Numbered from the stretch's first letter, positions 7,635 through 20,555 are shown. The stretch is DNA of 64,000 bases from Thermodesulfobacteriota bacterium (GCA_965216785.1 OZ244197.1:1888001-1952000), one strand, 5' to 3'. Numbers and translations are program-made. The notes: a model not told the origin generated them from the letters alone.

Positions 7635-7663
7635 TTGACTGAAATCGTAAACGTTTATATATT
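7635..7663 (+). promoter_or_regulatory. sigma70-like promoter for the collagen-like gene
   Basis: TTGACT-N17-TATATT in an AT-rich intergenic region. Confidence 0.5.
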
Positions 7664-7689
7664 TGAGTGAATTTAAACGGAGGATGGAG

Positions 7690-8763
7690 ATGATTAGATC
7701 AATTACTCGTGGAACTCTAGTTCTACTGCTGGCTATATCTGTAAACACATTTGCAGCTCAACCGGAAGTAACTGTAACAGAAGTATTCGTTGATTTTGAT
7801 ACCGAGACAATCACAATCATGGGTGATAACTTTGATCTTGGCCCTAATCCGCTCAATGTTACATTAGGTGCCTATGGCAGCCTAAATATAGTTTCTGCCG
7901 AACCAAATTTAATAATTGTCGACTTTCCAGCAGGCGGCCTGCTGGCTGGTGATTTTCTTTTAACGGTATCCAGCGGGCCAGGCCAAAGAAAAAATGACGA
8001 ACATGTCGTAACTGTTGGAGCAACCGGGCCTGAAGGACCGGAAGGCACGCCCGGAGAGCAAGGCCCCCAGGGTGCGCAAGGCCCACAAGGAGAGCCGGGT
8101 CCTGAAGGTCCTCAGGGAGAGCCTGGGCCAGAGGGCCCGCAAGGAGAGCCCGGACCACCAGGGCCTCAGGGTGATGCCGGACCCCCGGGACCGCAAGGTG
8201 ATCCTGGTATGAATGGTGTAGAAGGGCATCCGGGACAGCCTGGTCCACAAGGCGAACAAGGACCTCAGGGTGATACTGGACCACCAGGACCGCAGGGTGA
8301 TGCCGGACCTCCGGGACCACAAGGTGATCCGGGTCCCCAGGGTATTCAAGGACCCCCGGGACCACAAGGTGACACAGGACCCCAGGGGATTCAAGGGCTT
8401 CCCGGACCGCCAGGGCTGCAGGGCAATCCCGGACCCCCGGGCCCAAAGGGAGATCCAGGACTACAAGGAGAGACCGGACCAGAGGGCCCGCAAGGAATCC
8501 CCGGACCGTCGGGAACATGGAGTTTCTTTACAGGCAACTGTCCAACCGGTGGTAATGCATGTCAATTTACGGCATCCTGTGGAGCTGGCGAAACAGCGGT
8601 ATCCGGAGCTTGCGGGCTTTTAACCGGGAGTCAAAATAGCAGGGATATTATGTATACCGGTCCTAATCCGTTAGACACAACTCAATGGATTTGCAGATTT
8701 GACAGGGGTGGAGGTGCAGCTTTTACAGTAGACTACGGGGTATTTTGTGTTCCAAATTCTTAA
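7690..8763 (+). CDS. Secreted collagen-like protein (signal peptide, small beta domain, ~56 Gly-X-Y triplets, Cys-rich C-terminal domain)
   Basis: Uninterrupted GXY run; GGAGG RBS before ATG 7690; signal peptide [22 protein letters not shown]. Confidence 0.9.
8017..8520 (+). repeat. Collagen Gly-X-Y coding repeat (~56 triplets)
   Basis: Counted from the translation GAT-GPE...GPS-GTW. Confidence 0.9.
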
Positions 8764-8867: not shown

Positions 8868-9125
8868 ATGAACGAAAAACCTACTATAGCTGAAGATATT
8901 GATATTAATGAGGTAGAGGACGGCTACGTTATTTACCAAAAGGAAAATGACAAGGTTCACTACCTGAACAAGACTGCCGTGCTTGTACTCGAATCCTGCA
9001 CCGGGAAAAACACTGCTGCTGATATAGAGGTGATTGTAAAGGAGGCGTATAAGCTTCCTGAAGCACCACAAAAGGAAGTCGCCGACTGCCTCGATACACT
9101 CTTTCAAGAAGGTCTGATTAAATAA
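8868..9125 (+). CDS. PqqD-family / RiPP recognition element (RRE) protein
   Basis: 85 aa; 'VHYLNKTAVLVLESCTG...IEVIVKEAY...EVADCLDTLFQEGLIK' fits the PqqD pattern (LN.t...w...dG...l...y...dv..fl..L...gli). Confidence 0.85.
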   Translation: MNEKPTIAEDIDINEVEDGYVIYQKENDKVHYLNKTAVLVLESCTGKNTAADIEVIVKEAYKLPEAPQKEVADCLDTLFQEGLIK

Positions 9126-9958
9126 ATTACGAACGTAAGTACACGCTGCTCGACACGGTAATCACAATACGTACTGAAAGCGAGGTACTGGCGCGCCGTC
9201 TTGATTTTATAGTACAAGAGGCGGAGCACACGCTTCACCCCCTAAAAGACGCTACATACGAATTCATACTCAGGGACGGCGCTTACGAGATAAGGAAGGA
9301 TGGAAGTCTTTGTTTCTCCTCTTCCGACCTCTCAGACGCAGTCTTTAATCTGCAGTGGCTTATTCATAAGGAAGTATTGAAGAACGTTACAGAGTCTATA
9401 CGTATTCATGCGGGATGCGGGGAGCTCGACGGAAGGAGGTTTCTCGTCGCGGGCGACAAGGGGGCGGGCAAGACGACGCTCATGGTACGTCTATTGTTCG
9501 AGGGATTCCGCGTCATCGGTGATGAGCTGGTACTGGTCAGGGACAGGAGAGCAATCCCATTTCCCAGAAGGTTTCACATCAAACAAGAAAGTATGAACCT
9601 GCTGCCCGAGCTTAACAGCCTGTTTGCTTCCCTGCCATACAATATGACAAGCTACGGCCATAAGATGTTTTCATTCACTCCTCAGGATGCCGGATATGAG
9701 TGGAAGATCGACGAGGGTGACATTCATTCTATTTTTTATCTGGAACCCAACCACGGAGGGCAGACGCGCATAGAGGAATGCCCGAAATATATGATGGTCA
9801 ATAGGGTTATGCCTATGAGTTTTCTGTCTGAGACCGAGGATCATATGAAGATAAACCAGCTCTGTAATATGATTGATCGAGCAAACTGTTATATTTTGCA
9901 TGTTGGAGACCTTGAAGGGGCGGTTTCCACTATACAGGAAAAAATGTCTGTGCTATAA
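9122..9958 (+). CDS. HPr-kinase-related P-loop kinase (start uncertain: frame is open from ATA 9122; ORF track uses TTG 9377)
   Basis: 'IHAGC...LVAGDKGAGKTTL...GF.VIGDELV' matches the HprK-type His / Walker A / acidic-pair signature. Confidence 0.8.
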   Translation: MNYERKYTLLDTVITIRTESEVLARRLDFIVQEAEHTLHPLKDATYEFILRDGAYEIRKDGSLCFSSSDLSDAVFNLQWLIHKEVLKNVTESIRIHAGCGELDGRRFLVAGDKGAGKTTLMVRLLFEGFRVIGDELVLVRDRRAIPFPRRFHIKQESMNLLPELNSLFASLPYNMTSYGHKMFSFTPQDAGYEWKIDEGDIHSIFYLEPNHGGQTRIEECPKYMMVNRVMPMSFLSETEDHMKINQLCNMIDRANCYILHVGDLEGAVSTIQEKMSVL

Positions 9959-9959
9959 T
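9951..9959 (+). promoter_or_regulatory. Extended -10 promoter (TGcTATAAT) upstream of the precursor-Hint genes
   Basis: Perfect TGnTATAAT about 45 nt before ATG 10004, which has an AAGGAGG RBS. Confidence 0.45.
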
Positions 9960-10003
9960 GCGTAATTAGTATTATTAGACCTGCTATAAAGGAGGAACGT
10001 TAC

Positions 10004-10591
10004 ATGAGCGAGAAAAAATTTATAGATGAAGTTAATCCCGAAAGGCGCGAGTTTTTAGAGAAAGTGACCAAGGGAGCTTTTATCATCCCTACTGTAATAT
10101 CGGTGATGATGCTGAATCAGAAGCTTAACCTAACGACGGCCAACGCACAGAGCAACCTACCACCGTGCCTGTCTTGTGAGACTTTAATCTCCACCCCGGA
10201 CGGGAACGTCACAATAGTTGATTTAAAACCTGGGATGAAGGTCTATACCCTCGATACTAAAGGAAACAAGGTTGTAGAAGAGCTTGAGCTCGTATCAAAA
10301 GTAACGGTCCCTGAGACTCATACGCTCTTCAGTCTATGTTTTGGCGGCGGTACAGAGCTATTAGTTTCCGGTGCTCATCCGACAGCGGACGGCAGATATA
10401 TATATGATCTCAAACCGGGCGATATGATCGACGGCGCTGAGCTCTTATCCATCGAAAAGGTTAGCTACACAGCCGGATATACATATGACCTGCTACCGGC
10501 GGGAGATACTGGATGTTACTGGGCTGACGGGGTTCTTTTAGGCAGCACGCTAGCCGCAGAGTCAGAGAGCAGAATACGGAAGGCCTCTTAA
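10004..10591 (+). CDS. Putative precursor peptide 1: 48-aa leader + QSNLPP + C-terminal Hint domain (Cys55 at 10166)
   Basis: Hint blocks 'CLSCETLISTPDG', 'DLKPG', 'VSGAHP' and 'TYDL...YWADGVL'; leader shared with three paralogues. Confidence 0.85.
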   Translation: MSEKKFIDEVNPERREFLEKVTKGAFIIPTVISVMMLNQKLNLTTANAQSNLPPCLSCETLISTPDGNVTIVDLKPGMKVYTLDTKGNKVVEELELVSKVTVPETHTLFSLCFGGGTELLVSGAHPTADGRYIYDLKPGDMIDGAELLSIEKVSYTAGYTYDLLPAGDTGCYWADGVLLGSTLAAESESRIRKAS

Positions 10592-10642
10592 CAAGGCTCT
10601 AAGAGCTATAAAAACAGCACTTAAAAGAAGGAGGGTTCTTAC

Positions 10643-11227
10643 ATGAGCGAAAAAAAATTTATAGATGAAGTTAACCCCGAGAGACGCGAATTTCTGGAAA
10701 AAGTAACTAAAGGCGCATTTATTATCCCAACTGTCGTTTCTGTAATGATGTTGAATCAAAAACTTAACCTTACGACAGCCAACGCGGCGAGCAACATGAT
10801 TTGTCTTTCTTGCGAGACTTTAATATCTACGCCCGAAGGTGAAATTCGGGTAGTTGATTTGAAACCGGGAATGCTTGTCTTTACCCTGGACATGAACGGA
10901 AACAAGGTCATAGAGCGGTTAGAGCTAGTATCGAAAGTAACGGTCCCTGAAACTCATGTACTCTGCCATCTGGTTTTTAGTGATGGGAGAGAGCTCTTTG
11001 TGTCGGGTGGGCATCCGACAGCGGACGGTAGAGATGTTAACGAGCTTGCGCCGGGTGACATGCTCGACGGAGCGGAGGTGGTCTCTGTAGTGAATATTCG
11101 CTACATAGCCGGTCATACCTATGACTTGCTCCCTGCCGGAGAGACGGGAAATTACTGGGCAAACGGTGTTCTGTTGGGCAGCACGCTCGCACCTGAGTCC
11201 GTGAGCAGAATACGGAAGGCCTCTTAA
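10643..11227 (+). CDS. Putative precursor peptide 2: 48-aa leader + ASNMI + C-terminal Hint domain (Cys54 at 10802)
   Basis: Tandem paralogue of 10004-10591; 'CLSCETLISTPEG', 'VSGGHP' and 'TYDL...YWANGVL'. Confidence 0.85.
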   Translation: MSEKKFIDEVNPERREFLEKVTKGAFIIPTVVSVMMLNQKLNLTTANAASNMICLSCETLISTPEGEIRVVDLKPGMLVFTLDMNGNKVIERLELVSKVTVPETHVLCHLVFSDGRELFVSGGHPTADGRDVNELAPGDMLDGAEVVSVVNIRYIAGHTYDLLPAGETGNYWANGVLLGSTLAPESVSRIRKAS

Positions 11228-11337
11228 CTGTAAGGCAAGTTAAGCTAAGGTTTCAGCCTGTTACATTAAGTGCATAATTCATCTTTATGCTATGTAGAGC
11301 TTTCATCCTGTATTAAAATTTTTCCAATGGGTAAAAA

Positions 11338-12444
11338 TTGAGCGATATCCTGTTTTCCGCCTCTATGATCGTCCGAAACGAGGAAAAATTCCTTGAGGGA
11401 TGCCTTGAGTCCATTAGAAACGTCGTGGACGAAATAGTAATAGTCGATACAGGCTCAGTAGACGGCACAAAGGAGATTGCCTTAGAGTACGGTGCGAGGG
11501 TATTTGATTTCCCGTGGAACGGAGATTTCGCGGCAGCGCGTAACGAAGCCCTTCGTCACTGCAGGGGCGAATGGATACTGTATATAGACGCTGACGAACG
11601 GGTGAGGCCCGCCGAAAAGTCCTACGTCACTGAAATTCTCTCGGACGTATCTAAAGTCGCATATACACTTTTGTTTTACCCGATAGTGGGCTATACGGGA
11701 TACCGTGAGCACCGCATCTTCCGAAGCGATCCCCGCATACGTTTTCAGGGGGTTATACACGAAGGTATGCTTTCCGCGATCCAGGACGTTGCGCGCGAGG
11801 ACGGGCTCGAAATCGGTTATTGCGATCTTGTAATAGACCACCTGGGATACGAGGGTGACCTTACGCATAAGCACGAAAGGAACCTGCCCCTACTGAGAGA
11901 TCAGATTGAAAACGACCCAGAAAGAATTTACCTCAGATGGCAGCTCGGCGCGGCGCTTAAGGGACTTGGGGACTTGGATGGTGCGGAGAGGGCGTGGATG
12001 GACGCGATCGACATTATACGCGGAAAGGAAACGGTAGGCCCGGAAGACAGCCATCCGTACTACGACATGATCCGCCTCCTGAATGAGAGTGAGCGTGACT
12101 ACACAGAGCTTCTGGCCGAGTCTTCAAAGCTGTTTCCGGACAACTATTTAATAACCTGGACCAAGGCCATGACGCTGATGCACGATCAAAGATTTGAGGA
12201 TGCTGCGCGGGTGTTTGAATCTCTCGCCGCGATAGATCCGGCAAGCCTTGACGGGGAGATACTTGCCTATAACGCGCGCATATTCGATGAGCTTTCCTAT
12301 GAACCCCTCGCCACGTGTTATTTTAAGCTCGGCAAGCTAGAAGAGAGCGAGAAATATTACGCGCTCGCGCTCAGGTGTGATCCTGAAAATCAGCAATACC
12401 GTACGAAGCTCAAGTTCGTTTCAGCGTTGGTAAATAAATCGTGA
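11338..12444 (+). CDS. GT2 glycosyltransferase with C-terminal TPRs
   Basis: 'SMIVRNEE', 'VDTGSVDGT', 'DFAAARN', 'IDADE' and 'HLGY', plus helical TPR repeats. Confidence 0.88.
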   Translation: MSDILFSASMIVRNEEKFLEGCLESIRNVVDEIVIVDTGSVDGTKEIALEYGARVFDFPWNGDFAAARNEALRHCRGEWILYIDADERVRPAEKSYVTEILSDVSKVAYTLLFYPIVGYTGYREHRIFRSDPRIRFQGVIHEGMLSAIQDVAREDGLEIGYCDLVIDHLGYEGDLTHKHERNLPLLRDQIENDPERIYLRWQLGAALKGLGDLDGAERAWMDAIDIIRGKETVGPEDSHPYYDMIRLLNESERDYTELLAESSKLFPDNYLITWTKAMTLMHDQRFEDAARVFESLAAIDPASLDGEILAYNARIFDELSYEPLATCYFKLGKLEESEKYYALALRCDPENQQYRTKLKFVSALVNKS

Positions 12445-13182
12445 TTGATTATGAAAGATGAACCGCTTGTATCATGCCTTTGCGTTACAAGAGACAGAGT
12501 GCCTATGCTCAAAAGAGCGATAAGGTCGTTCAGGGACCAGGATTACGGGCACAAGGAGCTGGTGATCGTGTATGAGAGCGACGACGGTGAAACAGAGGAA
12601 TTTTTAAGAGAAGTTTCAGACGGTAACATTCTCAAAATAAAAGTTCCGGCAGAGCCCAGACTCACGCTCGGAGAGCTCAGGAACCTGGCTCTTAAAGAGA
12701 GTACGGGAGAGTATTTTTGCCAGTGGGACGACGACGATTTCTATCATAATCAGAGGGTTTCATTCCAGATGGAAGTACTGCGCGAGTCTGCTATGCCCGC
12801 CTGCGTAATGGTCCACTGGCTCATATACGATTTGGCGCATGCTCAGGCCTACGTGTCTAATATGAGGCCTTGGGAAGGCAGTCTGCTCTGTAAAAAATCA
12901 CTCATAGATGAAGAGCTTAAGTACGAGGATAAAGGCAGGGGGGAGGACACGGCTTTAATAAGTGAGCTGTTTACGAGAAACCTCGCATTTCCCGTAATTA
13001 TGCCAAAGCTATATATATACGTATACCATGGGGGTAATGTGTGGACAGATGAGCATTGGGGCAGAATATTCAGCGCGAGCACGAAGCTCTCTGAGGAGTC
13101 GAGCAGGGTGATAAGGGACATATTGGACGGGAAATACACAGGTGATGAAGCCTCCGGGCTGCTGGATGATATAACTGAATGA
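12445..13182 (+). CDS. GT2 (GT-A) glycosyltransferase
   Basis: 'PLVSCLCVT', 'LGELRN', 'QWDDDD' and 'GEDT'. Confidence 0.82.
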   Translation: MIMKDEPLVSCLCVTRDRVPMLKRAIRSFRDQDYGHKELVIVYESDDGETEEFLREVSDGNILKIKVPAEPRLTLGELRNLALKESTGEYFCQWDDDDFYHNQRVSFQMEVLRESAMPACVMVHWLIYDLAHAQAYVSNMRPWEGSLLCKKSLIDEELKYEDKGRGEDTALISELFTRNLAFPVIMPKLYIYVYHGGNVWTDEHWGRIFSASTKLSEESSRVIRDILDGKYTGDEASGLLDDITE

Positions 13183-13209
13183 AATCACCCGCATAACGAA
13201 CTAAGAATT

Positions 13210-14958
13210 ATGGCGATACCCAAAATATTGTATCAGACCTATAAGACCAAAGAGATCCCGGAGCGGCTCGAAGAGTATCGCCGTAAGCTGCTAGAGCTTC
13301 ACCCCGGCTGGGAATACCGGTTTTACGGAGACGACGAGTGCAGGGATTTAGTGAAGAGGTTTTTACCCTCGTTTCTCCCGGTATATGATAGCTGCTCGAT
13401 ACCGGCTCAGAAAGCCGATATATTCCGCATCATAGCGGTCTGGGCGCTAGGCGGGTTTTACCTGGATATCGACGTCGAATGTATACGGAGCGTCGATCAG
13501 CTCTGTGAATTCCACTTAGTATTTGCCGAGGAGCTCACACTTACTCAAGAGCAGGCGAAGGAACTGGGTCACAGGGACCGCCTAAGGGTGGGGAACTTTA
13601 TGTTCGGCAGTGAGCAGGGCCATCCTTTTCTTCTGCGTATTCTAAGGAAAATGGCGGAGGAAAGCAGGCGTGAGATTCGCTCTGAGAACGATGTGCTGGA
13701 ATCCACAGGGCCGGGCCTTGTCACTACCGTATACCATGATGCGTGTGAGGAGCTAAGGGACATCGTACTGCTGCGGAACATCGACCGTGAATGCCCTGTC
13801 ACTGGCGGTGTAGCCTGCCACTTCGGAAATTATGCCATACACCACCATGAAGGCTCCTGGAGGTGGGGGCATGTTAAATCTCCCAAGCTGAAAAACTTTG
13901 CCCGAAGTCAAAAGATCACACCGACTGAGATAAACAAAATCTGCAGCGAGATCGATTCTGAATTAGAAAGGACAAGTAGACCCGAGGATATTTATATATT
14001 AAGAGCATACAAGGAGAAACCATACGATGGCTTAACCTACGTGTTTGACCGAACTTCGGGGCTCGGCATCATTTCTGACAATACGAGCAGTCTTGAAGAT
14101 AAAAAAGTCCTCGTGAGCGGGATGCCCATTATGTTTACCGACAAAGTGTCTAAGCAAAATACCAATGTTATATACACGACATTTGAAAGTACGTCGCTTC
14201 CCCCAGATTGGGTGAGTGCGATAAACGGCTTATTTAACTACTGTATAGTTCCGCACCAGCACGTAAAGAAAGTGTTTGAGGATTCGGGGGTGAGCATACC
14301 AGTCAGCGTCATACACCAGGGATTTACTAGGTATAGGAGGAAAGATAGGAAAGCTCTTGACGATAAGACATACAAGATCGGATTTCTCGGGGTCCCTGTA
14401 GAGAGGAAGAATCTATTCAAGCTATATCAGGCTTGCGCACATCTTCTGGCGGATATACCTGAACTGAGGCTTAGTGTTCATATCCCGGATTATTACGGTG
14501 GGATGAATGTGGAATATCTGGGGATGGTCAAAATGTCACCCTTCGTAGATTGGACCGAAGGTCATCTGGGCGAGAATGAGATCGCAGAGTGGTACAGCGG
14601 GCTTTCGTGTTATGTATTTCCGTCGAGCGGGGAAGGGTGGTCCTTTACTCCGCGGGAAAGTCTTTATCTCGGAGTACCGACTATTTTGTCGGATATCCCT
14701 GTTCACAGGGAGCTTATTGAATCCGGTTACTGCAAAGCGATACCCGTAAGTGGTAGGGAAGAGGCGGTATTTAACTCAAAGGTGTCCGGACAATGGGACA
14801 GGGTTGCGGTTGAGGACATAGAAAACACGATACGAGACCTGTATCTGAATTACGGGAGTTATTATATTAAGGCTATTCAGGGAAGCCGCTGGATAGAGAA
14901 TAAATGGACCAATGAAAGCACTCAGCAGTTACTGCTCGATTATTTGACAAAGGTGTAA
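13210..14958 (+). CDS. Bifunctional glycosyltransferase: N-terminal GT32/OCH1-like DxD domain + C-terminal GT4-like (GT-B) domain
   Basis: 'IPKILYQT', 'KADIFR', 'GGFYLDIDV' and 'STGPG'; then 'YVFPSSGEGWSFTPRESLYLGVPTILSDIPVHRE'. Confidence 0.82.
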   Translation: MAIPKILYQTYKTKEIPERLEEYRRKLLELHPGWEYRFYGDDECRDLVKRFLPSFLPVYDSCSIPAQKADIFRIIAVWALGGFYLDIDVECIRSVDQLCEFHLVFAEELTLTQEQAKELGHRDRLRVGNFMFGSEQGHPFLLRILRKMAEESRREIRSENDVLESTGPGLVTTVYHDACEELRDIVLLRNIDRECPVTGGVACHFGNYAIHHHEGSWRWGHVKSPKLKNFARSQKITPTEINKICSEIDSELERTSRPEDIYILRAYKEKPYDGLTYVFDRTSGLGIISDNTSSLEDKKVLVSGMPIMFTDKVSKQNTNVIYTTFESTSLPPDWVSAINGLFNYCIVPHQHVKKVFEDSGVSIPVSVIHQGFTRYRRKDRKALDDKTYKIGFLGVPVERKNLFKLYQACAHLLADIPELRLSVHIPDYYGGMNVEYLGMVKMSPFVDWTEGHLGENEIAEWYSGLSCYVFPSSGEGWSFTPRESLYLGVPTILSDIPVHRELIESGYCKAIPVSGREEAVFNSKVSGQWDRVAVEDIENTIRDLYLNYGSYYIKAIQGSRWIENKWTNESTQQLLLDYLTKV

Positions 14959-15077
14959 GAATTTTAGATTATTGACTAATATTGATAACCGTCTTGTTTT
15001 ATCTGAAGCAATGTGTTAACTTAGAATCACTCTTTAAATGTTTACGCATTTGAAAATTGATAAAGGAGACTGGGAAT

Positions 15078-15248
15078 ATGAGCGACAAGAAATTTCCGGA
15101 GGACGTGAACTCCGAAAGACGCGAGTTTATAGAGAAAGTGACCAAGGGCGCTTTTATTATCCCCACTGTAATATCGGTGATGATGTTGAATCAGAAGCTG
15201 CACCTTACGACAGCAAACGCGAATAGTAACATCCCACCGCCACCTTAA
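15078..15248 (+). CDS. Putative precursor peptide 3 (56 aa): shared leader + NSNIPPPP, no Hint domain
   Basis: AAGGAG RBS before ATG 15078; MSDKKFPEDVNSERREFIEKVTKGAFIIPTVISVMMLNQKLHLTTANANSNIPPPP. Confidence 0.85.
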   Translation: MSDKKFPEDVNSERREFIEKVTKGAFIIPTVISVMMLNQKLHLTTANANSNIPPPP

Positions 15249-15322
15249 ATTGTGGTTTCGGTGATCTGAGCAGCTGGGTTCTGATATAACTTTTGAATAG
15301 TTTTAAAGGAGAACGGATATAA

Positions 15323-15502
15323 ATGAGTGACAAGAAATTTCCGGAGGACGTGAACTCCGAAAGGCGCGAGTTTTTAGAGAAAGTGACCAAGGGCGCTTTT
15401 ATCATCCCCACGGTAATATCAGTAATGATGCTGAATCAGAAGCTAAATCTGACGACAGCCAACGCACAGAGTAATATGACTATCATTAATGAACAGCCGT
15501 AA
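15323..15502 (+). CDS. Putative precursor peptide 4 (59 aa, absent from the ORF track): shared leader + QSNMTIINEQP, no Hint domain
   Basis: Manual translation MSDKKFPEDVNSERREFLEKVTKGAFIIPTVISVMMLNQKLNLTTANAQSNMTIINEQP*; AAGGAG RBS. Confidence 0.85.
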   Translation: MSDKKFPEDVNSERREFLEKVTKGAFIIPTVISVMMLNQKLNLTTANAQSNMTIINEQP

Positions 15503-15821
15503 GCTTTAGCATGGAGCAGTATAAATTTATGGCTGTCGTTGATATCTATTAAAAAGTAAGTCCGGCTAGAACGGGGTTGGCGAATGGAGCTCGCCCTTCG
15601 TTTCCGGTAAATGTTTTATATCATTTCAATTTTAAGCTTATTTTGCTGAATTTTGCCAGAATAAGCTTATTCCATCCAAGCTCAAATTAATCTCAACTTA
15701 TCAGATACAATAGAGGTTTTAATAATAAGCCGTAATGAGAATTCTTCGGTCCCTTATATAAATCCTCATTATGTTTATAGTATTATGCTGAGGGTTGGCG
15801 CTCAGAGCGGGATAAAGGAAA

Positions 15822-17099
15822 ATGGTTCAGTACAAAAATCCGGAATGTAAACGCGGCGGTTATAACGGAGGATATCTACCCGACCGCACGCAGGAGCTTT
15901 TGCTCAGGGCATGTCTTCTTAAGGGAGACGAGGCCATTGATGCGTATCGTGAATGGAAGAGCTTAGTCGATCTTGATAACGTCGATCCCGGCTCATACCG
16001 TCTTTTCCCTCTCCTTTACATAAACTTGAAATCACAGGGCTTGGAAGAGCCGATGATGAATATCTTTAAGTGGGTCTACACAAAAACCCGTGAGAATAAC
16101 GAAATACTGCTGCGTAATCTCGGCCCCCTGCTGAAAGAATTCAACAACTGCGGGATCGAGGTCATATTGCTTAAAGGCGCCGGGCTGATTCTCACTTGCT
16201 TCCGGGATTATGGACTTCGCCCCATGGTGGATGCGGACCTTCTCGTTCCTACCGCGAAAACCGGGGACGCGATCGAGCTCATAACAGGACTTGGATGGGA
16301 TTCGTCCATAACACCGCTTAAGGGTTTTAAGGACATGAAGCTGCTGTCCCGGCTCGGATGGACCCCGGGGGACAGAAAGCTCGAGGACTTCACTGAAGAG
16401 TATTTTTGCGTGAGGCACGGGCAGGACTTTACAAACCCTGAGAAGTTCACGATAGACCTTCACTGGCACATGCTCCACGGGTATAACGAGCCTGACGCCG
16501 ACGCGGATTTCTGGCAAGGTGCTGGTACTGTAAACGTGGAAGGCGCGCAAGCGAGGGTACTCGATCCGGCTGATCTGCTTCTTCACGTCTGTTCACACGG
16601 AGTAAGATGGGACCCTCTTCCCGCTATTCGCTGGGTGGCGGATGCGGCATGGATAGTCGACGGCTCAGAAGGTGGTATTGATTGGGAGAGGTTTGTAGAT
16701 GTAACCGCTCGCCACGGTAAGGTGCTTTATGCAAGGGAAGCTATACGCTATTTGAACCGTTATTTGGTACACAAAGTTCCGCAGTCCGTACTAGATCGGC
16801 TAAACACCCTGCCGGTCACGAAAGCTCAATATTTGGAGTATCATATTAGGACGCGTCCGCCTGGAATACTCGACGGTTTTTATGAGCTGGGGTTTCTTTA
16901 CGATAATTATTCGAAGGTCAGTCAGGGTCAAAACCTTTATCGCAGACTCACCGGATACCCCCGGTTCCTTCAGCATGTGTTCGGTATGGAAAAGCTGCGG
17001 CATTTGGTATTGTACGCCGCGTTCGAGTTCGTACGCCGGGGCGCGCATCTGCCGGGCTTGGTGGTCAGGGGACTAAAGAACAAGCTCGTAAAGGGGTGA
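15822..17099 (+). CDS. Nucleotidyltransferase family protein (NTP_transf_5-like)
   Basis: 'LLKGA...RPMVDADLLV...IDLHW...LLLHVCSH...WVAD' motif order. Confidence 0.82.
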   Translation: MVQYKNPECKRGGYNGGYLPDRTQELLLRACLLKGDEAIDAYREWKSLVDLDNVDPGSYRLFPLLYINLKSQGLEEPMMNIFKWVYTKTRENNEILLRNLGPLLKEFNNCGIEVILLKGAGLILTCFRDYGLRPMVDADLLVPTAKTGDAIELITGLGWDSSITPLKGFKDMKLLSRLGWTPGDRKLEDFTEEYFCVRHGQDFTNPEKFTIDLHWHMLHGYNEPDADADFWQGAGTVNVEGAQARVLDPADLLLHVCSHGVRWDPLPAIRWVADAAWIVDGSEGGIDWERFVDVTARHGKVLYAREAIRYLNRYLVHKVPQSVLDRLNTLPVTKAQYLEYHIRTRPPGILDGFYELGFLYDNYSKVSQGQNLYRRLTGYPRFLQHVFGMEKLRHLVLYAAFEFVRRGAHLPGLVVRGLKNKLVKG

Positions 17100-17151: not shown

Positions 17152-18159
17152 TTATCTTGTCAGGCGCCAGTAAAGCCTTCTAAACTTTCTTAGTATCTTA
17201 CTTTCGATTACCGTCAATGTTACACCTTTTAAAGTTCTAAGCGGGGATCCCTTAATAACGTCTTTCTCTAGATCACTGATTTTATAACGCTTCTGCTCAC
17301 CTGCAGCAGGGCTTGTATTTTCGAGTATGGTTTTCATTCTTTCTTGGAAGAGTTTGTCATCTGCATCCGTACCGCTCGTGTCCGATACCAATATGTGACC
17401 CCTGGGGGTTCTTAGGTACTTTCTCGCGCCCCCTCCGGGGGCGCAAAGGTGCCAGGCATTGGCCTCTGTAGTGACCATGAGTGTGTAATTTTTTTCAACG
17501 AGCCTCGCGCATAAATCGCTCTCTTCCCGGTGCGCCTGGTCCGAGTACCCGTCAACGGCCCATCCCCCTGCTTCCTCTACCGCTTTGCGGCGGTAGCATA
17601 TCGCCCCACCGAGGAGACTATCGACTTCTATGACTTCCGGATCATTATAATAGTGGTGGCCCTGCAGTTTCCAGGTCAGCTCATCAAGAGTAGATGTGAA
17701 TGACCTTTCCGCCAGATTCAAATCCAAGCTCGCCTTTTTCGCTTGAGGTACTGGAAAGCACCCGCCCACTGCAGCAAGCGGCCTGTCGGCGAAAAAATGA
17801 AACGGCTTTAGTATGTTTTCAATGAAACTTGCGTCCGGAAGCATATCGTCATCTATCCTCAGTATGAACTCGATCGATTGCGGCACGGCCTCCATTGCCT
17901 GCTGGTGTCTCTTCCAGCCATCTTTAGTACGAATGATTATGATCTCGTGACCTATGTTTCTGGCAACCGTAAGAAGGTCGGTAATCGCATCGTCTCTCTC
18001 GACAGGTGAATCGCTCTGGTCGTTGATTACAATCATAAAATTCGTAAAAGTTTGATTGAGCAGAGAGTTCAGCAGCACTGCAAGGTAGGAAGGACGGTTC
18101 TTCGTTGGTATGGCTACAGCTATTTTTTCGTCCTTTTTGATTTGCCTTAGTCTATCCAT
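17152..18159 (-). CDS. GT2 glycosyltransferase
   Basis: 'IPTKNRP', 'RIDDD', 'AGGW' and 'EESDLCAR'. Confidence 0.8.
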   Translation of the reverse strand: MDRLRQIKKDEKIAVAIPTKNRPSYLAVLLNSLLNQTFTNFMIVINDQSDSPVERDDAITDLLTVARNIGHEIIIIRTKDGWKRHQQAMEAVPQSIEFILRIDDDMLPDASFIENILKPFHFFADRPLAAVGGCFPVPQAKKASLDLNLAERSFTSTLDELTWKLQGHHYYNDPEVIEVDSLLGGAICYRRKAVEEAGGWAVDGYSDQAHREESDLCARLVEKNYTLMVTTEANAWHLCAPGGGARKYLRTPRGHILVSDTSGTDADDKLFQERMKTILENTSPAAGEQKRYKISDLEKDVIKGSPLRTLKGVTLTVIESKILRKFRRLYWRLTR

Positions 18160-19814: not shown

Positions 19815-20555
19815 ATGACGAACTTACTTGTAAAGCACTGGTGGATTTGGCTTGTCCTTGCGGCTCTATCATTGTTTGGATCATATATTTACGCAAACGT
19901 ACTCACTGACTTTTTGGCGCCTACAATAGCGAATTACTTTCGATATCTTGCTATTGCATTCGTGTTCATCTCCATCTATTTCTATTACCTTTCGTATGAG
20001 AGAAGAAAACTGCTTACATCTCAAACGGGACTTGATTCTATAAGACAACTTAGCTGGAGGAAGTTTGAGGATTTAATTACTGAGGCGTACAAGCAAAACG
20101 GCTACAAATTCCTAAGAGAGCCCCTCTCCGGGAGTGATAAGGGTATTGACATTATTGTACAGAAAGAAGGAGTGCAGACCATTATTCAGTGTAAACAGTG
20201 GCGGTCACGGAAACTCGGAGTCAAAGTAGTCCGCGAGATGTACGGGATTTTAAGCGGCAGCAATGCGGATGAGGTGCACATTGTAAGCACCGGAAGGGTG
20301 ACAAATGATGCGCTCAGCTTTGCAAGAGGAAAGCCAATAAAGCTGATATATGGTCGAGATTTATTAAATCTAATTTCAGACGCTCAGAAAAACACTCCTG
20401 AAAAGAGTAATATTTCTGAAACTGAAGTAACATGTCCTGAATGCGGCTCGGAAATGGTGCTCAGGAAAGCGCGTAAAGGAAAAAATGCCGGAAATGAATT
20501 TTGGGGCTGCATACAGTTTCCAAAGTGCCGGGGTACTGTGAGCATTACTTCTTGA
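19815..20555 (+). CDS. Membrane-anchored Mrr-like restriction endonuclease domain protein with C-terminal C4 zinc ribbon
   Basis: 'LSWRKFE...GY...DKGIDI...QCKQW', 'CPECGSEM...FWGC..FPKC' and two TMs. Confidence 0.82.
   Translation: MTNLLVKHWWIWLVLAALSLFGSYIYANVLTDFLAPTIANYFRYLAIAFVFISIYFYYLSYERRKLLTSQTGLDSIRQLSWRKFEDLITEAYKQNGYKFLREPLSGSDKGIDIIVQKEGVQTIIQCKQWRSRKLGVKVVREMYGILSGSNADEVHIVSTGRVTNDALSFARGKPIKLIYGRDLLNLISDAQKNTPEKSNISETEVTCPECGSEMVLRKARKGKNAGNEFWGCIQFPKCRGTVSITS

Follow-up and report, generated by a model that had tools for sequence, protein, structure and literature searches.

Linear polyphosphorylated peptides (LPP) are products of the lppA-K-B-S-D-N clusters of Bacillota, in which a YxxP motif in the precursor leader binds the RRE, the recognition element of ribosomally synthesized and posttranslationally modified peptide (RiPP) pathways, and S3 is phosphorylated (Popov et al. 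2026, PMC13381572; here and below, statements on LPP refer to the accessible parts of that paper). This is the closest known system to the ten-gene cassette at positions 8868-17099 of the window, the 64,000-nucleotide stretch of a Thermodesulfobacteriota bacterium genome (GCA_965216785.1 OZ244197.1:1888001-1952000) that we analysed. Like an LPP cluster, the cassette brings together an RRE that stands as a separate protein, a kinase of HprK-like type and an uncharacterized NTP transferase and lacks a cyclase. LPP clusters likewise have a conserved leader and a variable C terminus, on one to three precursors, and both systems have a leader motif of the form aromatic-x-x-P-x-V, a Ser shortly past the leader and a glycosyltransferase-rich setting. 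However, no SipW-like LppS was found between 8868 and 17099 or among the conserved neighbors of 20 related loci, and no MsbA-like ATP-binding cassette (ABC) exporter LppD was found in the cassette. Its leader has F in place of Y, together with an N-region of twin-arginine type, an inserted hydrophobic stretch and an AxA site, and it carries a constant family 2 glycosyltransferase with tetratricopeptide repeats (GT2-TPR), cores of 4 to 13 amino acids (aa) with a conserved Asn, and Hint or S74 tails, all outside Bacillota. The terms intein, Hint, twin-arginine and Tat are absent from the accessible text on LPP. Since LppS and LppD are missing, the cassette is, by gene content, not a member of that system. 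The modified LPP fragment appears as AQSNWK in the main text and as AQSWNK in a supplement row, and because of that discrepancy we did not count the SN match with our cores.

An initial annotation of the locus had left LPP unnamed and had compared it with lasso peptide clusters and HPr-rel-A systems. The lasso comparison stands at the level of parts: the paeninodin and pseudomycoidin clusters also combine an RRE, an HprK-like kinase and a nucleotidyltransferase, and pseudomycoidin bears hexoses on phospho-Ser (accessible parts of PMC8498205 and PMC11912497). In contrast to lasso clusters, the cassette lacks the macrolactam cyclase and B2 peptidase families; its candidate phosphorylation site is near the core N terminus rather than at a C-terminal Ser, and it has dedicated glycosyltransferases. 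HPr-rel-A systems (TIGR04352/TIGR04353) likewise place a PqqD-like protein beside an HprK-related kinase and a nucleotidyltransferase, but here both proteins fell below the model cut-offs (kinase, 69 bits versus 200; RRE, 24.6 bits versus 35). Our literature search found no paper naming an HPr-rel-A substrate. Glycocin glycosyltransferases act first, on the linear precursor, and have O- and S-linkage chemistry (accessible parts of PMC11912497). The structures closest to the GT2-TPR of the cassette are Listeria GmaR (E 5.9e-30) and then glycocin enzymes of the SunS type (SunS/ThuS; E 7e-17 to 4e-16). Unlike a glycocin enzyme, however, it scored 69.1 bits against a cut-off of 350 for the SunS-family model TIGR04195, and the Cys-containing disulfide core of glycocins has no counterpart here (Cys in 0 of 4 window cores and 3 of 208 Dadabacteria cores). 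A double-glycine leader and a PCAT exporter are also missing, and an RRE and several further glycosyltransferases are present.

On balance, we favor reading the cassette as a four-precursor cluster that makes short glycopeptides by way of an RRE, the GT2-TPR, twin-arginine translocation (Tat) export and Hint self-cleavage. The RRE would grip the FxxPxV motif of the leader, the GT2-TPR would add the first sugar to the core, most likely at its conserved Asn, and the remaining glycosyltransferases would extend the glycan. The Tat system would export the peptide, with signal peptidase cutting at ANA, and the Hint tail of two of the precursors would sever itself at its first Cys. This would leave a core of 5 to 6 residues, like the products of the tail-less precursors, ending in a thioester to be resolved by water or another nucleophile. 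The kinase and nucleotidyltransferase would form a second, losable module phosphorylating the Ser at core position 2, and a nucleotide or sugar would then be added to that phosphate, as in LPP and pseudomycoidin. Within this reading we lean slightly toward Asn as the acceptor of the first sugar, with Ser/Thr a serious contender and any other residue a minor one. Leader binding, each chemical step, export and cleavage are proposed here from the genes, families, fold, synteny, co-occurrence and motif statistics described below.

The order first read for the ten genes, all of them on the + strand, was borne out by open reading frame (ORF) calls. Two of the precursors are fused to Hint domains: precursor 1 (195 aa, 10004-10591), with its leader at 10004-10147, the core QSNLPP at 10148-10165 and the Hint domain at 10166-10588; and precursor 2 (194 aa, 10643-11227; 77% identical to precursor 1), with its leader at 10643-10786, the core ASNMI at 10787-10801 and the Hint domain at 10802-11224. 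The other two are tail-less, namely precursor 3 (56 aa, 15078-15248), a leader plus the core NSNIPPPP, and precursor 4 (59 aa, 15323-15502), a leader plus the core QSNMTIINEQP with an N-M-T sequon. Precursor 3 stands as a gene with its start moved from TTG 15057 to ATG 15078, which follows a Shine-Dalgarno-like AAGGAG.

The four leaders are identical at 40 to 47 of 48 residues, in keeping with the common 48-aa leader of the initial annotation, yet at only 115 to 136 of 153 bases, with 11 to 24 synonymous versus 1 to 8 nonsynonymous codon differences per pair. This synonymous excess at low base identity argues that they are real paralogues under selection on the protein. By tblastn, the 3.1-Mb source genome holds exactly four copies of the leader, all in the cassette. 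The leader comprises RRxFL at residues 14 to 18, FxxPxV at 26 to 31 and NQKLNLTTANA, which contains the AxA site and is followed by xS. R14, R15, F17, F26, P29, V31, A46, N47, A48 and S50 are invariant in 23 leader rows, and R and P are invariant in 19 distant ones. Its middle and end align by eye with the LPP motif YxxPxVLxHQxIxFETxxS; the exact motif is not matched, F replacing Y and two insertions being present. A relaxed form of the motif matched three precursor copies and nothing else in a six-frame translation of the source genome. Among the 311 distinct precursors that we used for core statistics, it matched 181 of the 245 of Dadabacteria type and 1 of the 66 others. Counts of FxxP in this set depend on the pattern by which the precursors were anchored, and we gave them no weight.

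Under a TatFind-type rule, 242 of the 245 Dadabacteria-type precursors passed, as against 21 of 2,453 ORFs in the genome, and TatC is present in the source genome. The leader also resembles a Tat signal, AxA site included. Since no conserved peptidase or ABC exporter was found in the cassette, export by the general machinery together with signal peptidase is the simplest inference. The leader might also be a Tat signal and nothing more; the small ORFs would then encode peptides that are exported but have no link to the enzymes, with the Hint fusions as passengers. Its agreement with the Tat rule fits such a view, as do the nearest named Atlas clusters, which are Tat-signal proteins (score 0.86-0.87, a lead only), and the orphan Hint-fused precursors found away from the cassette in L022, L024, L025, L028, L029 and L249. 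We nevertheless consider it very improbable: every one of those genomes also holds the cassette, a precursor stands between the kinase and the GT2-TPR across several phyla, the Hint catalytic residues are invariant, and signal peptides are not usually 83-98% identical among paralogues. Two of the orphans, in separate genomes (L022:7163-8011 and L024:7607-8245), adjoin proteins with IPTL-CTERM sorting signals.

Homologues of the cassette came from records named Thermodesulfobacteriota or Candidatus Dadabacteria, and the cassette is syntenic in Ca. Dadabacteria. We found the leader in 19 of 61 relatives, all within the family of the window; across the phylum, 20 of 120 genomes carried it. Strong kinase matches (>400 bits) were also present in 20 of the 120, and 19 genomes had both; the two mismatches (L245 and L246) come from fragmented assemblies in which the contig breaks off within the cassette. 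The co-occurrence of leader and RRE/kinase genes that the initial annotation anticipated was thus seen, and leaders apart from these genes were found only as orphans in cassette-bearing genomes. In the fetched loci the RRE and kinase genes come first, then Hint-fused precursor(s), GT2-TPR, GT2 and GT32-GT4, then between one and five short precursors and finally the nucleotidyltransferase.

Farther afield, we searched 1.84 billion representatives with a profile and obtained 19 hits, of which 16 were leader-bearing proteins, down to ~37% identity; the other three (P0252, P0254 and P0255) were long low-complexity proteins and were dropped as chance matches. Scanning GTDB for the kinase brought up 12 distant loci of full length (L062-L070 and L072-L074) from Deltaproteobacteria/Myxococcota, Congregibacter, Acidobacteria, Microthrixaceae, Bradyrhizobium, Devosia and others. 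In each of them a related precursor is followed by a GT2-TPR, and 11 have an RRE directly 5' of the kinase (in L062, which has an insert, no RRE was seen). NTP_transf_5 was detected in nine by Pfam and missed by phmmer, and GT4 plus GT32, Anp1 or Mannosyl_trans3 genes lie alongside. The core unit of RRE, kinase, precursor and GT2-TPR is met again in Acidobacteria, Actinomycetota and the Alpha-, Gamma- and Deltaproteobacteria. From a metagenome scan with the RRE profile we kept 80 of 270 loci, many of them short; 38 had the leader, and a GT2-TPR lay downstream of the precursor in 30 of those. Beyond Dadabacteria the system is rare, with convincing matches in 4 of 401, ~4 of 301 and 1 of 251 sampled genomes. 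Weak leader matches (E 1e-3 to 1e-6) occurred in G220, G270, G578, G758, G789, G802, G811 and G1004. Co-occurrence and gene order across phyla support the proposal of the initial annotation that the four small genes encode substrates, to the extent that they would be the precursors of an RRE-linked pathway. A sister family in the same order (L250-L252) has weak kinase matches, an RRE and, in two cases, a nucleotidyltransferase, with no leader or GT2-TPR match; this is a different kinase-RRE(-nucleotidyltransferase) cassette.

The RRE (85 aa, 8868-9125) is a stand-alone PqqD-fold protein that scored 30.3 bits against the Pfam cut-off of 23.4 for PF05402. It is 74-82% identical to 12 relatives, and the top PDB match of its family profile is the lasso RRE TfuB1 (E 0.001). 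The HprK-like P-loop kinase had been called as a 193-aa ORF starting at TTG 9377. The gene stands, but its reading frame extends upstream to an ATA at 9122, which overlaps the stop of the RRE gene; the product is thereby lengthened to 278 aa (9122-9958) and keeps the IRIHAG, GDKGAGKT and DE motifs; ATG, GTG and TTG are absent from the first 85 codons. Among 25 loci examined, three were unmatched by the pattern and the remaining 22 junctions all had the ATAA overlap, with TAA as the RRE stop in every case and never TGA, which would yield ATG. The two genes also overlap in distant loci, with TTG, GTG, ATA or CTG. Either the kinase would be translated by weak coupled initiation, or a -1 shift at the stop of the RRE gene would fuse the two proteins. 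The nucleotidyltransferase (425 aa, 15822-17099) scored 119.5 bits against a cut-off of 31.2 for NTP_transf_5 and is the sole PF14907 gene in the source genome. Its AlphaFold2 (AF2) model from a single sequence was unusable (pLDDT 42), and no PDB relative was found for it or for the GT32-GT4 protein. One relative, L241, has an NTP_transf_5-TauD fusion.

The GT2-TPR gene (368 aa, 11338-12444; PF00535 plus TPR, with the DxD motif YIDADE) is followed by a GT2 gene (245 aa, 12445-13182; PF00535), whose position is kept across Dadabacteria loci, and by a fusion of GT32 (DxD) and GT4 (582 aa, 13210-14958; PF04488 plus PF00534); all these families scored above their Pfam cut-offs. The GT2 and GT32-GT4 enzymes would serve in chain extension; GT32 and GT4 are separate genes in the four distant loci L063, L065, L067 and L068. 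Because the kinase is missing from four loci that retain the RRE, precursor and GT2-TPR (L172, L184, L198 and L243), gene content points to the GmaR/SunS-like GT2-TPR as the enzyme that stays constant, in preference to the kinase or nucleotidyltransferase, the kinase having been lost repeatedly. On the GT2-TPR tree these absences need three changes, at least two of which are forced by well-supported branches, and in L178, the sister of L184, the kinase is fragmented. The core of L243 consists of nine PNQ repeats, with no Ser or Thr, and neither a kinase nor a PF14907 gene was found in its genome (G803, a 1.7-Mb assembly of unknown completeness). The phospho-, nucleotidyl- or glyco-modified product of the initial annotation accordingly shifts in emphasis toward the action of the GT2-TPR. 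Beside this kinase-less member, L243 also encodes an FkbM methyltransferase fused to a second PqqD domain (L243:5048-6235).

The same loci bear on a kinase-first, LPP-like scheme in which the Ser at core position 2 would be phosphorylated and a phospho-glycan built there by the nucleotidyltransferase and glycosyltransferases, the Asn being merely a recognition residue. In 206 of 208 Dadabacteria cores the residue at position 2 is Ser or Thr. The Ser that matches it in LPP is modified by LppK (PMC13381572), and PsmN adds hexoses to phospho-Ser (accessible parts of PMC8498205). The GT2-TPR homologues, too, act on O or S. Set against these points are the kinase losses in at least two and likely three lineages, the L243 core, and the cores from outside Dadabacteria, in which a Ser preceding the Asn is not enriched (25 of 66 versus 20.6) and N-x-S/T is. 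We regard a kinase-first order as rather unlikely.

That enrichment bears on the Asn of the reading that we favor. N[^P][ST] occurred in 47 of the 66 non-Dadabacteria cores as against 18.3 after shuffling (0 of 1,000 shuffles), and in 13 of 24 leader clusters against 6.8 expected (1 of 2,000 shuffles); reversed and shifted orders, used as controls, were at expectation. With leader residues trimmed, the count was 44 of 66 versus 17.6, and N-P was depleted (2 versus 9.7). In Dadabacteria xSN cores, S/T stood at N+2 in 50 of 169 cases as opposed to 50 of 743 at other positions. Across Dadabacteria cores Pro makes up 13% of residues and followed the first Asn in 3 of 193. A bias toward N-x-S/T together with avoidance of N-P is the signature of the N-glycosylation sequon. 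In these cores it is a bias and not a rule, and it hints at Asn glycosylation. En-bloc transfer by PglB/STT3 was rejected as a route, no STT3 gene being found in the 5 genomes searched, including G000 (the search control was positive in 4 of 14). GT32, Anp1 (GT62) and GT71 are families of yeast N-mannan synthesis. Among L066, L069, L072-L074, L137, L188, L238 and L240, the alphaproteobacterial members have Mannosyl_trans3 (GT71) and/or Anp1 (GT62), and others have GT32; in these loci the genes adjoin N-G-S/T cores. Locus L238 has seven precursors in tandem. Some cores elsewhere are collagen-like, with GPTG repeats (L034:11712-11960 and L038:6812-7024), and others are Thr-rich and mucin-like (L155, L162 and L244).

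Both Hint domains scored just under the Hint_2 cut-off in Pfam (26.1 and 28.3 versus 28.4 bits). AF2 modeled the Hint part with a pLDDT of 90-97, and Foldseek returned 62 matches at E<=0.001, the best being inteins, BIL2 and hedgehog. As in Hedgehog and bacterial intein-like (BIL) proteins, the domain has the Hint fold with Cys1, the block B His and the block F Asp (C55, H125 and D162, invariant in 61 rows) and is C-terminal on an exported protein. It differs from them in that its N-terminal partner is a 5- to 6-residue core behind an RRE-type leader, from inteins and A-type BIL domains in lacking the terminal His-Asn, and from Hedgehog in that no sterol-recognition region was identified. Aligned with a Cat intein C-fragment, the domain matches over the block F YDLL, and reading on by position brings Gly-Ser to the His-Asn site; GST is present in 107 of 117 cases, with HN near the end in 1 of 117. 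Intein motif roles and the Hedgehog mechanism, N-terminal cleavage without splicing, have been described (accessible parts of PMC7765530 and PMC9163320). Because the cleavage residues are kept and the terminal His-Asn is replaced by GST, the Hint tail is predicted to cleave at its N terminus without splicing, as in Hedgehog.

Leader-plus-Hint genes were present in 13 of the 20 leader-bearing genomes, with one more Hint cut by a contig end, and no Hint-fused copy was seen in the loci read from the other 6. Cores before Hint are 4 to 13 aa long (median 7), as opposed to a median of 9 in short forms, and three cores are shared by Hint-fused and tail-less precursors. The same precursor type carries a Peptidase_S74 tail in L066, L137, L187 and L194; L137 mirrors the window, with two S74-tailed precursors and a plain one. 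On the GT2-TPR tree, which includes three of the S74 loci and is rooted for drawing only, the Hint loci form one clade (support 100/98) apart from them. By this distribution the Hint domain is an accessory tail, with S74 in its slot elsewhere. The use of one slot by two unrelated self-cleaving domains argues for selection on the ability of a folded tail to remove itself. The in-cis Hint release or activation of the C terminus in the initial annotation is thus upheld as to the cleavage residues and reduced to an accessory role.

The Hint domain might instead anchor the product in the manner of Hedgehog: the peptide would prime a surface glycan, and the thioester would pass the glycopeptide to an envelope lipid, a sugar, a protein or, as a small ring, its own N terminus. 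Lack of the terminal His-Asn is what transfer rather than splicing needs (accessible parts of PMC9163320 and PMC7765530). The same Hint subfamily also ends exported proteins (a hydrophobic N terminus in 111 of the best 120 longer homologues, none of which has the cassette leader), slow-reacting residues ahead of the Cys would preserve the thioester, and Dadabacteria Hints extend 13 to 35 residues past GSTL. Yet the same cores occur on tail-less precursors, the Hint fusion was not seen in 6 of 20 genomes, and its slot is filled elsewhere by S74, which releases rather than ligates. Anchoring is accordingly improbable in our judgment. Members of this large GSTL-ending subfamily lie at the C terminus of lipoproteins and secreted proteins in Chloroflexi, candidate phyla radiation (CPR) bacteria and others, often after CPI, and look like an unstudied C-terminal processing or anchoring module.

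Several observations count against the glycopeptide reading with Tat export and Hint self-cleavage that we favor. Its support is at the level of sequence and models. Related core sequences are not independent, which bears on all the core counts. N-x-S/T occurs in just one of the four cores in the window and, among 208 distinct Dadabacteria cores, in 65. Asn itself, found in 199 of the 208, is missing from 9 and from distant cores including those of L141, L142 and L172, and the near-universal Ser/Thr at position 2 offers another acceptor. The nearest solved GT2-TPR homologues are O- and S-glycosyltransferases; GmaR chemistry is of the O-linked type, and we know of no GT2 enzyme that glycosylates Asn. 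Of the 66 distant leaders, 20 have KR instead of RR, and no more than 37 satisfy the Tat rule; TIGR01409 matched 2 of 19, weakly, and none of the window precursors. Pro, Ile or Val, which slow intein cleavage, precede the Hint Cys in 83 of 122 cases, and the unknown completeness of G803 makes its missing kinase weak evidence.

A bolder version would have an RRE-guided GT2-TPR N-glycosylate the N-x-S/T-biased cores without an oligosaccharyltransferase, with yeast-mannan-type extension (GT32, Anp1/GT62 and GT71), a leader that doubles for Tat and Hedgehog-style anchoring or ligation through the Hint thioester, and would make of the family a new class of RiPP with sparse members in five or more phyla. 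We hold this combination to be possible but doubtful. A signal, or a glycoconjugate of the surface or matrix, is a likelier product than an antibiotic, because there is no conserved immunity or ABC gene and the cores are of low complexity.

Outside the cassette, the flanking SGNH hydrolase (6226), collagen-like (7663) and PaaK-like (18289) genes are not kept beside relatives; the second of these, at 7663-8763 just upstream of the RRE, encodes a secreted protein with collagen repeats. An opposite-strand GT2 at 17152 clusters with a single other locus, and at 19815-20555 the window encodes a membrane-anchored protein with an Mrr-type restriction endonuclease domain and a topoisomerase zinc ribbon. 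A scan for promoters and terminators was at chance level (16 versus 12.2 and 9 versus 7.9).

The cassette family is real, conserved and apparently undescribed: a literature search, outside which most subscription journals fell, found no paper describing it, and none on a RiPP class with Hint-fused precursors, as the initial annotation had supposed. If our reading is right, it would be an undescribed family of glyco-RiPPs with three features that we found in no paper: a Hint domain serving as a self-removing or activating tail of a RiPP precursor, with S74 as an independent solution; a single leader used by an RRE and the Tat translocase alike; and, possibly, a GT2 enzyme that glycosylates Asn. 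The family would also name substrates for the long-unassigned modules of RRE, HprK-like kinase and PF14907 protein that lie among glycosyltransferases, and a glycosyltransferase that is directed by the leader, tolerates varied cores and comes with a thioester handle would be of use as a tool for protein engineering.

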